IMG/VR virus record: IMGVR_UViG_648276647_000005
Coordinates: 1-7,753 of that record
Source: a virus
Lineage: Duplodnaviria > Heunggongvirae > Uroviricota > Caudoviricetes
DNA length: 7,753 nucleotides
Direction: 5' to 3' (one strand)
The notes below the pieces were generated by a model that was given only the letters and a program-made list of their open reading frames with translations, ran no database searches and was not told where the DNA came from. A program made the position numbers and the translations under genes. Below are positions 3,197 to 4,247 of this stretch, piece after piece; the first letter of the stretch is position 1; every line of letters begins with the position of its first letter.

Positions 3197-3228
3197 AACA
3201 ACGAAAAAGCCCCGGGACATGCCGGGGC
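3197..3228 (-). terminator. intrinsic terminator upstream of the holin (minus strand)
   Basis: 7-bp GC stem (3209..3215 pairs with 3222..3228), 6-nt loop, followed on the minus strand by TTTTTCGTTGTT (rc of 3197..3208). Confidence 0.6.
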
Positions 3229-3322
3229 CAGATGGAGTGCCAGATTAAGCTTCTGGCGGTATATACTCGTGTTTGATATCGTTAAATCGCCAAAAGTAAC
3301 AATTCAAACAAAGAGGATTTTT

Positions 3323-3484
3323 ATGTCTGAAAAAAACAAGCCACAAGGTGAAAATAAACCTCAGCAACCCGTGGCACCAAAACCAACTCCAACACAAAGT
3401 ACTGCGGACTTTGCTACACGTCGTGTTTTTGTTGGAGATTCTGCCGACTCAGTCATTGAACATATAAAAAAACAGCCGAGATAA
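3323..3484 (+). CDS. hypothetical small protein, 53 aa (MSEKNKPQGENKPQQPVAPKPTPTQSTADFATRRVFVGDSADSVIEHIKKQPR)
   Basis: ATG at 3323 with a strong SD (AAGAGGA at 3311..3317, 5-nt spacer). Convergent with, and overlapping by about 30 nt, the 3' end of the membrane-protein gene. The longer track ORF 3092..3484 would span the terminator hairpin and is not preferred. Confidence 0.5.
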   Translation: MSEKNKPQGENKPQQPVAPKPTPTQSTADFATRRVFVGDSADSVIEHIKKQPR

Positions 3485-4022
3485 ACATCGCCGCTACCGG
3501 AGCAAGGATGGTATACATCCTTGCTTTATCGAGACTCGTGCGGATTTTCTCATTTTCCAACAGTAACTCTCTTGCTGTATCACTCAAGTCAACAAGGCGA
3601 TACCTTCGTATAAGCGGCAATAACTTATCAGGTCCTAAATATCCTGCATCAGCGAATATTTTAAAGCTCGAGGGCTCCATATCCTTATATTTTTCATGAT
3701 ATAGATGATCAGGAGGGGCATTGATCAGGCCCCTAACCTTCACAGATAAACCAGTACATACCAAGTAAATGGCGCACCATGTCCATAGTAATGTAAATGT
3801 GGTAATTCCGGCGGTGAGAAAATCGAAATTAGTTTTCTGTGTCAGCAATAAAAAAGATGAGCCAATTCCAACAATCTGAATGTTCAGAAGTTTGTATCCA
3901 TTCTCAACATTGGTTTTGTTAGAAAGATGAATCTCTCGTATCGTCTCTTCCCCTTGTTTTTCAAGATAATCGACGAGCTCATCATCTACTCCTAAAAAAT
4001 AATCTTTAGGTAGTTCTCTCAT
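3453..4022 (-). CDS. hypothetical integral membrane protein, 189 aa, AT-rich moron between Q-like gene and holin
   Basis: ATG at 4022..4020 with SD GGAGGTG (rc of 4026..4032). Predicted topology by eye: soluble N-terminal segment of about 45 aa, two adjacent hydrophobic helices (about residues 50..100), a soluble domain of about 70 aa, and a C-terminal hydrophobic helix (MYTILAPVAAMFISAVFLYVQ). Codons are strongly AT-biased compared with neighbours. Confidence 0.75.
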   Translation of the reverse strand: MRELPKDYFLGVDDELVDYLEKQGEETIREIHLSNKTNVENGYKLLNIQIVGIGSSFLLLTQKTNFDFLTAGITTFTLLWTWCAIYLVCTGLSVKVRGLINAPPDHLYHEKYKDMEPSSFKIFADAGYLGPDKLLPLIRRYRLVDLSDTARELLLENEKIRTSLDKARMYTILAPVAAMFISAVFLYVQ

Positions 4023-4050
4023 CTCACCTCCACATCCTGTACTGAAAACA

Positions 4051-4059
4051 ATTTTACCA
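4051..4059 (-). promoter_or_regulatory. candidate extended -10 promoter element (TGgTAAAAT) for the membrane-protein moron
   Basis: Minus-strand TGGTAAAAT (rc of 4051..4059) lies about 30 nt upstream of the moron ATG and downstream of the tR'-like terminator. No convincing -35. Confidence 0.3.
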
Positions 4060-4130
4060 GAATGTCTCGATTCTAGGTATTCCGCCAGGAATCGCGCTCC
4101 AGAAATGAAACATCAGGTTCGCCAGTACCA

Positions 4131-4160
4131 GAAACAACAAAACCCGCTCAATGGCGGGTT
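4131..4160 (-). terminator. intrinsic terminator in the late leader (tR'-like), downstream of the Q-like gene
   Basis: Minus-strand hairpin AACCCGC-CATTGA-GCGGGTT (4141..4160) followed by TTGTTGTTTC (rc of 4131..4140). The plus strand has no T-tract, so it is unidirectional. Confidence 0.6.
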
Positions 4161-4218
4161 CTGGTAAAGTTCATGCGCTTGGTTCGCCTCGCGATACAGC
4201 TTTGCGAAGCATACCGGA

Positions 4219-4247
4219 ATTGAAGCAGTTTATGCGTAAAAAATCAA
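4219..4247 (-). promoter_or_regulatory. candidate late promoter (pR'-like) immediately downstream of the Q-like gene
   Basis: Minus-strand -35-like TTGATT (4247..4242, overlapping the Q-like stop codon), 17-nt spacer, -10-like TTCAAT (4224..4219). Would give a leader of about 80 nt ending at the 4131..4160 terminator. Motif-level call only. Confidence 0.3.

Follow-up and report, generated by a model that had tools for sequence, protein, structure and literature searches.

The DNA analysed here, positions 1 to 7,753 of the IMG/VR record IMGVR_UViG_648276647_000005 (Caudoviricetes; these 7,753 nucleotides together are called the window below), spans the region for late regulation and lysis in a lambdoid Escherichia coli prophage, read on the minus strand. 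Between a DUF1133/Q-like antiterminator gene upstream and a lambda-family holin gene downstream we identify a cassette of ~0.87 kb (~4066..3197) that, judged from comparison with related loci, represents an autonomous, horizontally mobile moron of two co-inherited genes: one for a 189-amino-acid (aa) inner-membrane protein, and one, convergent with it, for a 53-aa protein. The predicted parts of the cassette are a promoter-like element (P189), the 189-aa gene, the 53-aa gene, two hairpins and an intrinsic terminator (Table 1). The pair recurs across genera under purifying selection and is therefore far beyond chance. Both protein families are without a characterised relative, and the two-gene module is undescribed in the literature that we searched. 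An earlier note on this DNA, made from its letters alone, had pointed to a moron-type insert in the Q-to-holin slot and to a possibly undescribed two-component module; both points hold, the latter in that no named family, defence model, solved structure or paper matched.

The cassette moves independently of its neighbours

Our comparison of loci separates the cassette from its surroundings. The cassette of locus L055 is 89% identical to that of the window, but neither the antiterminator (PF03589) nor the holin of that locus is the one present here. Homology between the two starts ~10 nt upstream of the −10 element of the 189-aa gene and continues through the downstream terminator, and we therefore set the edges of the cassette at these limits and leave the upstream terminator outside. 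Among all the loci collected, the cassette is combined in many ways with antiterminators of at least three families (DUF1133, PF03589, PF06530) and with holins of at least four types; it usually lies 190–420 nt after the antiterminator, at times with intervening cargo such as a methyltransferase gene, an Ogr-like gene or tRNA genes. A 1.2-kb query with flanks matches 1645 E. coli genomes, and the cassette itself is found in only 223, so that flanks that are adjacent in related phages receive an insert moving independently of them. The composition of the insert is also unlike that of its neighbours, as the earlier note had observed for the larger gene: GC is 0.391 and GC at third codon positions (GC3) 0.363 in the 189-aa gene, and 0.42 and 0.24 in the 53-aa gene, vs. 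a GC of 0.47–0.51 in the Q, holin, lysozyme and Rz genes. As for signals of its own, the terminator is conserved with compensatory changes, and a predicted promoter is present as a −10-like element.

The cassette is carried by 223 of 5426 complete E. coli genomes (~4%), nearly always at ≥ 99% identity, and by temperate phages of Klebsiella, Citrobacter, Serratia, Yersinia, Proteus, Providencia, Morganella, Pantoea and others; in public annotation both genes are labelled only “hypothetical”. The 1.2 kb around it are 100% identical in the chromosomes of E. coli O55:H7 DEC5E, O111:H2 12A and FDAARGOS_1059, where PGAP gives both open reading frames (ORFs) the label “hypothetical protein”. Five of 50,697 phage records carry the cassette, all upstream of holin and lysis genes as in the prophages, and so do two of 72,556 plasmids. 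The cassette is restricted to temperate phages.

More distant relatives occupy other places: downstream of cI, next to a repressor/Cro pair, between the packaging genes of a Mu-like phage, and beside higBA and parA (Table 1). A convergent overlapping small ORF is also present in the distant loci L115 and L118, the ORF of L118 being weak evidence when taken alone. The small ORFs of all six distant loci (L107, L110, L111, L115, L116 and L118) encode hydrophilic products, most of them rich in Pro, Gln, Lys, Ser or Thr.

The 189-aa membrane protein

The 189-aa ORF is the same in the PGAP annotation, and the strong Shine–Dalgarno sequence that the earlier note had assigned to it is present as GGAGG at 4031–4027, 4 bases before the ATG. 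The note had also predicted three transmembrane (TM) helices. Kyte–Doolittle hydropathy reveals two strong hydrophobic segments (76–94 and 170–188) and a weaker G-x-G-S-S helix at ~45–61. An AlphaFold model built from 41 homologues (predicted local distance difference test score, pLDDT, 83.4) contains long helices at 14–62, 68–92 and 134–188, with a less confident stretch at 93–133; in this model the ~45–61 segment is the end of helix 14–62 and is paired with helix 68–92. A reasonable reading of the model is that the TM segments lie at ~45–61, 68–92 and 169–188: the predicted number of three is retained with two strong segments and one weaker one, which the model supports. The positive charges after TM2 and the short TM1–TM2 loop suggest an N-in topology, in which residues 1–44 and 93–168 would be cytoplasmic.

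A word-indexed search with the 189-aa protein returned 104 clusters at 90% identity, almost all of 189 aa, from Escherichia, Klebsiella, Citrobacter, Enterobacter, Salmonella, Serratia, Yersinia, Proteus, Providencia, Morganella, Pantoea, Sodalis and others. An exhaustive profile search over 1.84 billion representatives returned 102 clusters at 50% identity and reached down to ~20% identity; members are nearly all of 165–200 aa across both searches. The family alignment has 24 invariant positions, with examples in the acidic N-terminal helix DDxLVxFLExQGE, in SNxxNxENGYKLL leading into IVGIGSSFLLLTQ, in P104-x-x-L-Y and in RRYRL. Truncated copies of the gene are common.

The convergent 53-aa gene encodes a protein under selection

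The earlier note had described a convergent 53-aa gene with an excellent Shine–Dalgarno sequence, overlapping the 3′ end of the large gene. The gene proves to be conserved and co-inherited: AGAGGA stands 5 bases before its ATG, and over its final 32 nt it shares DNA with the end of the 189-aa gene. When the small ORF was searched at the length annotated by PGAP, its matches seemed at first to be confined to Escherichia. The Citrobacter, Serratia and Pantoea loci of distant 189-aa homologues nevertheless hold a convergent ORF of 46–55 aa that ends 20–32 nt inside the large gene and shares the motif R(V/M)(F/L)VGDSA(D/E). In total, a convergent small ORF with an overlap of 20–35 nt is present at 102 of 106 full-length loci, in 42 distinct variants, and loci at first scored as lacking the ORF carry the motif variants ADSAE, NDSAE and VGNS; in L032/L043 no start codon was found for it.

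All variants begin with MS[EQDN]x(N)K behind a ribosome-binding site and continue with a Lys/Pro/Gln-rich linker of variable length, the motif R-φ-φ-G-D-S-A-[DE] and a basic tail. Outside the overlap, the differences among variants at codon positions 1, 2 and 3 number 1113, 873 and 2980; a frame-blind alignment gives 610, 464 and 1652; and 155 of 237 internal gaps are multiples of three. Given these codon-position differences, the gaps in threes and the preserved start, ribosome-binding site and motif, the small ORF is a protein-coding gene under purifying selection. A profile of the small protein collects 73 clusters from the same taxa as the large gene, all of them stand-alone and nearly all of 44–66 aa, none fused or named.

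The 53-aa protein has a Lys/Pro/Gln-rich N-terminus, the motif in the form RRVFVGDSAD and a short C-terminal helix. AlphaFold, run on this protein alone, predicts 30–40 disordered residues at the N-terminus and a short helix at 41–50, with better confidence over the motif. The basic tail may in part be a by-product of the overlap, in which it lies antisense to the hydrophobic codons of TM3.

Public annotations differ over the start of the small gene: RefSeq/PGAP places it at GTG 3269 (71 aa), and other annotations give 100 or 130 aa. The start is ATG 3323, and the public GTG start probably wrong, because MS[EQ]xNKP is conserved from the ATG onwards and a gene that began at GTG 3269 would include its own conserved −10 element. 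A 1-nt deletion at position 3473 of the window, inside the overlap, alters both C-termini and lengthens the small ORF in locus L114 (E. coli EC20) and in at least six other human isolates; PGAP annotates only the large gene in isolates with this deletion. A possible origin of the small ORF as the remnant of a GDSL/SGNH esterase, suggested by the VGDSA motif and by nanS-p genes found in the slot, was ruled out: the ORF lies on the other strand, keeps a constant 44–64 aa, and has its own start and ribosome-binding site across genera.

Promoter-like elements of the two genes

Both genes are preceded by elements whose promoter activity we infer from sequence. For the large gene, 41 distinct upstream regions were compared: 30 have TA[AGT][AGT]AT with a G at −14 at a distance of 34–42 nt from the start, and 33 have it within the search window of 22–55 nt; TAAAAT also precedes the distant homologues in L107 and L110. 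The sequence around the element is not conserved, and the T of “TG” is found only in the window. The possible extended −10 promoter that the earlier note had placed at P189 is thus retained as a hexamer with its G at −14 and loses its TG, and the clear extended −10 element is instead the one before the small gene, which we call Psmall.

The Psmall pattern TGnTA[TC]n[GT]T lies 46–57 nt before the ATG in 35 of the 42 small-gene variants, at 47–50 nt in 31 of these 35. Its invariant positions are TG, T−12, A−11 and T−7, with −13 variable; these are the positions that matter for extended −10 promoters. The seven variants without the element form one subfamily with a different upstream region. In the distant locus L107 (4700–4800), two direct repeats (TTGT(T/A)ACCACAACTTATAA) flank a TATAAT upstream of the small gene, and a gene with a ribbon–helix–helix domain lies just upstream on the same strand; this arrangement suggests that the small gene is under repressor control in that lineage.

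Terminators and a structured 3′ untranslated region

A scan of the minus strand found terminator-like sites at 4163..4138 and 3229..3208, two vs. 1.6 ± 1.4 in shuffled sequence, a count not above chance. Both agree within a few bases with the terminators that the earlier note had described as bracketing the 189-aa gene; only the downstream one, however, is conserved as the cassette's own. It is kept in 15 aligned loci with changes on both sides in six of eight pairs, and by this conservation it is predicted to end the 189-aa mRNA and to mark the right-hand edge of the cassette. The upstream one is found at the same place in nearly every related locus with a sequence that tracks the antiterminator module and not the cassette, and we read it as a putative tR′-like terminator of the phage late leader.

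Between the small gene and the cassette's terminator lie two further structures. Stem-loop A has an outer stem GUUUG/CAAAC, an inner stem GUUA/UAAC and a nearly invariant loop CUUUUGGCGAUU; its DNA also contains Psmall and the 5′ end of the predicted small mRNA. Hairpin B is conserved in position, with CCAGA/UCUGG replaced by CCAGU/ACUGG and by other pairings. On the large-gene strand, stem-loop A, hairpin B and the terminator together fold at −38.2 kcal/mol (z = −3.6). Among 15 diverse loci, 89.5% of cells are paired vs. 34–45% when the partners are slid, 11 pairs are changed on both sides, and the observed covariation was reached by none of 500 shuffles.

This structure was derived on the large-gene strand; since an A·C on that strand would be a G·U on the other, the count of G·U against A·C serves as a symmetric measure of the strand concerned. 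Stem-loop A has 20 G·U vs. 2 A·C, as does, nearly, the terminator used as a positive control (22 vs. 2), and hairpin B has 5 vs. 3, a weak asymmetry. On the strength of this asymmetry, the best interpretation of stem-loop A is a structure formed by RNA, in the 3′ untranslated region (3′UTR) of the large mRNA, set atop the putative promoter and the 5′UTR of the small gene. Rfam gave nothing in 3190–4100 at E ≤ 1.

A conserved intrinsic terminator for the small mRNA was sought and rejected: the only hairpin, with a weak U run (~3504–3526 and UUUAU), lies inside the large coding region and is not consistently detectable in other lineages. In Citrobacter prophages (L002, 4820–5127), four tRNA genes (Met, Phe, Thr and Gly) lie between the cassette and the holin, and the cassette there is without hairpin B and its own terminator.

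Neither protein belongs to a characterised family

Pfam, NCBIfam and PADLOC provide no family for either protein, and no solved structure matched either; profile searches against PDB sequences gave nothing below E = 0.07, and for the large-protein family three fold searches gave nothing specific. When 67 distant members of the large-protein family were compared with Pfam one by one, scattered sub-threshold matches of TM type appeared (8xMP in five, DUF6249 in four, YLATT in three and PycTM in one), which we do not count as homology. A literature search with context terms, accession numbers and a conserved 19-mer found nothing on the cassette, and neither protein's accession number is in the DefensePredictor supplements.

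Membership in known classes was considered for each candidate class in turn. The 189-aa protein has no holin match in Pfam or PHROGs, and the cassette stands beside unrelated holins and also away from lysis genes. No match to SieA, SieB, RexB or Imm was found in PHROGs or Pfam at E ≤ 0.1, nor is any of these among the matches listed for the 67 relatives. Type I toxins are peptides of less than ~60 aa, and the membrane protein has 189; type I antitoxins are non-coding antisense RNAs, whereas the transcript here, although fully complementary over the small gene, encodes a selected protein. In type II toxin–antitoxin systems the pair is co-transcribed and its operon is repressed by the antitoxin or by the complex; here the genes are convergent, and the small protein is without a DNA-binding domain.

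The families PycTM, SLATT and YLATT resemble the large protein in size and in having a cytoplasmic helix that leads into a TM hairpin, and single distant members of the large-protein family match them faintly (PycTM, E = 0.016, 16 bits vs. a cut-off of 27; YLATT, E = 0.054; SLATT_3, E = 0.13). These matches, however, are far below the gathering scores and concern one to three of the 67 members each, PycTM only one, and no cyclase, other signal generator or SMODS/SLOG partner is adjacent in any locus examined.

Comparison with known systems

Morons of lambdoid phages, such as HK97 gp15 and lambda bor and lom, are classically single genes, and HK97 gp15 is reportedly a small inner-membrane protein. 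The cassette is like them in being a short AT-rich insert of temperate phages that moves independently and has a promoter-like element and a terminator; unlike HK97 gp15, bor and lom, to which it has no similarity in sequence or fold, it holds two convergent overlapping genes and a conserved structured 3′UTR. With P22 SieA, SieB and lambda RexB the large protein shares the character of a small multi-pass inner-membrane protein of a temperate phage, and the distant relatives in L107 and L110 lie beside a repressor gene, as rexAB does in lambda. Unlike in RexA/RexB, however, where the partner is a co-transcribed sensor, here it is a disordered 53-aa protein whose gene lies on the other strand.

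In arrangement the cassette recalls Bacillus subtilis txpA/RatA and bsrG/SR4 and Enterococcus faecalis par, where the mRNA of a membrane protein meets a convergent, 3′-overlapping transcript, with structured RNA at the contact. It differs from these type I loci in the size of the membrane protein (189 aa vs. peptides of less than ~60 aa) and in that the antisense transcript codes for a conserved protein; toxicity is not part of the likeness. BstA/aba (PMC8585504) and Tai/Ati of phi80 (PMC11364771) pair a prophage-expressed defence with a further element that depends on the late or lytic programme of the phage. Our cassette would follow a similar logic if, as we propose from its geometry, late read-through reverses the balance of its two genes; unlike those systems, to which it has no homology, it has no defence and immunity roles assigned between its two genes, and Tai is found not in the late leader but upstream of the packaging genes (PMC11364771).

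Proposed working of the cassette and alternative explanations

The layout of the cassette suggests how its two genes could be coupled. The large mRNA would have to cross the entire small gene and Psmall before reaching its terminator, so that the two mRNAs would be complementary over at least the whole small gene; the loop of stem-loop A is also complementary to the 5′ end predicted for the small mRNA. The expression of the two proteins would then be coupled reciprocally, by colliding polymerases and by duplexes of the two RNAs. In a lysogen, behind the late-leader terminator, the two promoters would drive expression at a low and balanced level; upon induction, Q-modified polymerase would pass both terminators, raising the membrane protein and silencing the small gene. 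The membrane protein would act as the effector, and the disordered, cytoplasmic small protein, together with the antisense mRNA, as its antagonist or regulator.

We tentatively favour, with somewhat less than even confidence, the reading that the pair is a lysogen-benefit, toxin–antitoxin-like module of phage exclusion or abortive infection. This reading is drawn from context: the cassette seems to have its own promoters and insulation, it is confined to temperate phages, it has distant members in immunity regions, and it is independent of lysis and antitermination types. A bolder version, which we regard as speculative and rather doubtful, is that the cassette represents a new class of membrane-acting exclusion or abortive-infection system, in which the effector is held in check by the 53-aa protein and by mRNA–mRNA pairing, and Q-dependent transcription flips the balance and gives self/non-self discrimination.

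Several observations weigh against an exclusion or abortive-infection role. PADLOC-DB v2 gave no hit for either protein at E ≤ 1, and in PHROGs only phrog_11870 (the large protein, as well as five distant members) and phrog_14506 (the small protein) were matched, both of unknown function. No −35 element is recognisable at P189, which may be weak or need an activator. The Morganella-type loci L026 and L077 are without the −10 element, and a terminator immediately precedes the gene there, which may be expressed only late. In Enterobacterales loci the cassette nearly always points the same way as the late operon and stands immediately before the lysis cassette, a position that would also fit a late-phase function. 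Lastly, the small ORF is absent from one Salmonella lineage (L023/L024), which has a 348-aa gene instead, and one E. coli contig of IMG/VR has a frameshift in the A7 run of the small gene with the large gene intact, which may be a sequencing error; because of that lineage and this contig, the membrane protein may not be lethal alone.

That position raises the possibility of a late-phase accessory: a Q-antiterminated membrane protein that tunes lysis timing, as an antiholin-like or membrane-priming factor, or that blocks superinfection or re-adsorption, with the small gene keeping it off in the lysogen. The co-orientation just described would agree with such a function, as would the passage of Q-modified polymerase through both terminators and the two loci without a promoter of their own. 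We nevertheless consider it unlikely: at least four unrelated holin families and three antiterminator families leave no tie to one lysis system, distant members stand at the immunity region or in the packaging region of a Mu-like phage, the cassette has its own conserved −10 element and terminator and no holin or lysis match in Pfam or PHROGs, and none was seen in virulent phages among the 50,697 records. A compact unit in which a membrane protein has a small, disordered and probably unstable partner, with convergent, fully overlapping mRNAs as in type I systems with 3′ overlap, could also be an addiction module that stabilises the prophage without an anti-phage role; loss of the short-lived small protein or antisense RNA would free a membrane toxin and cause post-segregational or post-excision killing. 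The presence of hok/sok in the same prophage indicates that such modules are tolerated there, but such killing requires that the toxin mRNA or protein outlive its antagonist, one lineage has the large gene but not the small one, and truncated copies of the large gene are common, though decaying prophages are common too; this explanation strikes us as rather improbable.

To the same low degree we credit the possibility that the cassette is other lysogenic-conversion cargo, in which the membrane protein alters envelope physiology (stress tolerance, transport or colonisation) under regulation by the small protein and no phage is involved. Stx, nmpC and other conversion genes occupy the Q-to-holin slot in related lambdoid phages, and the foreign composition, the promoter-like element and terminator, and the occurrence in clinical, animal and environmental E. 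coli would suit cargo of this kind. The cassette has, however, no link to a pathotype or niche, being spread over many sources at 4% of complete genomes, and plain conversion genes seldom show such tight, convergent antisense coupling. The least probable of these explanations, to which we give very little credence, is that the 53-aa ORF is not a functional protein and that its DNA is kept only as promoter, antisense RNA or 3′UTR structure, with an open frame that arose incidentally. The most conserved block is indeed non-coding and overlaps RNA structure, the Lys-rich tail, antisense to TM3 codons, is a possible by-product, and the ORFs of L111 and L118 are weak evidence by themselves; yet third-position differences outside the overlap are ~3 times those at the first or second position, gaps prefer multiples of three, and the start, ribosome-binding site and motif are kept across genera while the linker drifts.

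If the cassette is a defence or exclusion module, as we favour, it would be a compact system of less than 0.9 kb without a relative among known systems and under an unusual control, in which a coding mRNA is antisense to the mRNA of its partner. As a lysis-timing factor, the cassette would instead count as a widespread addition to lambdoid lysis cassettes that has gone unrecognised. With its boundaries, promoter-like elements and RNA structure defined, it can be cloned and tested directly under either reading.

Setting of the cassette and other features of the window

Table 1. Features of the cassette and its surroundings, with distant relatives of the large gene in other loci; coordinates are those of the window.
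Feature	Position	Strand	Basis or remark
P189, putative −10-like element TGGTAAAAT	4059..4051	−	Read from sequence; core G(−14)-n-TAAAAT
189-aa inner-membrane protein gene (phrog_11870)	4022..3453	−	ORF call; PGAP agrees
53-aa convergent gene (phrog_14506)	3323..3484	+	ORF call; conservation
Psmall, putative extended −10 element TGATATCGT (consensus TGnTAYnKT)	3274..3282	+	Conservation; predicted transcription start ~3289
Stem-loop A, 3′UTR of the 189-aa mRNA (predicted)	3270..3310	−	RNAalifold and pair counts
Hairpin B, GCCAGA-N7-UCUGGC	3239..3257	−	Between stem-loop A and the terminator
Predicted intrinsic terminator of the cassette (stem 3229..3208, then U run)	3198..3229	−	Scan and conservation
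DUF1367 gene	5672..5073	−	Library match
YbcO-type nuclease gene	5073..4783	−	Library match
Q-like antiterminator gene (DUF1133; weak Phage_antitermQ match)	4786..4244	−	PGAP placement
Predicted intrinsic terminator, context and not cassette	4128..4163 (scan site 4163..4138)	−	Just downstream of the Q-like gene
Lambda-family holin gene	3105..2764	−	Phage_holin_3_1 match, 2e-27
Distant relative, L107	Downstream of cI, same strand		Convergent overlapping small ORF kept
Distant relative, L110	Next to a repressor/Cro pair		Small ORF immediately follows the repressor gene
Distant relative, L116	Between packaging genes of a Mu-like phage		Convergent overlapping small ORF
Distant relative, L111	Beside higBA and parA		No small ORF called; overlapping 55-aa Pro-rich frame, weak alone

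Downstream of the holin gene follow, in order, a GH104 lysozyme gene and Rz, with the small terminase gene further on. The Q-like gene starts at 4906 when ORFs are called mechanically (220 aa), and at 4786, overlapping the stop codon of the YbcO-type gene, in the PGAP annotation; the DUF1133 match starts only at residue 41 of the 220-aa form, and the shorter form is likely the real gene. Candidates for the late promoter are a site inside the 3′ end of Q at 4309..4280, found by a scan, and TTGATT-17-TTCAAT at 4247..4219, read by eye.

The window also contains a complete hok/sok type I toxin–antitoxin locus (6232–6556, minus strand) upstream of the nin-like genes of the same prophage, with a HokD-like ORF at 6444..6232 and an Rfam match to sok at 6382..6556 (114.7 bits). 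Just downstream of hokD, on the minus strand at 6142–6223, lies a below-threshold Rfam match to the Hfq-binding small RNA IsrK (30.6 bits vs. a gathering score of 50; E = 0.0012); IsrK controls an antiterminator in Gifsy-1. Between Rz and the small terminase gene, on the plus strand and thus opposite to the late operon, lies an AT-rich ORF of 172 aa (935–1453; GC 0.42; phrog_30882, of unknown function), for which searches of Pfam, NCBIfam, PADLOC and the phage collection found nothing. It is a second moron-like insert, in the same slot as the Tai defence genes of phi80 (PMC11364771).

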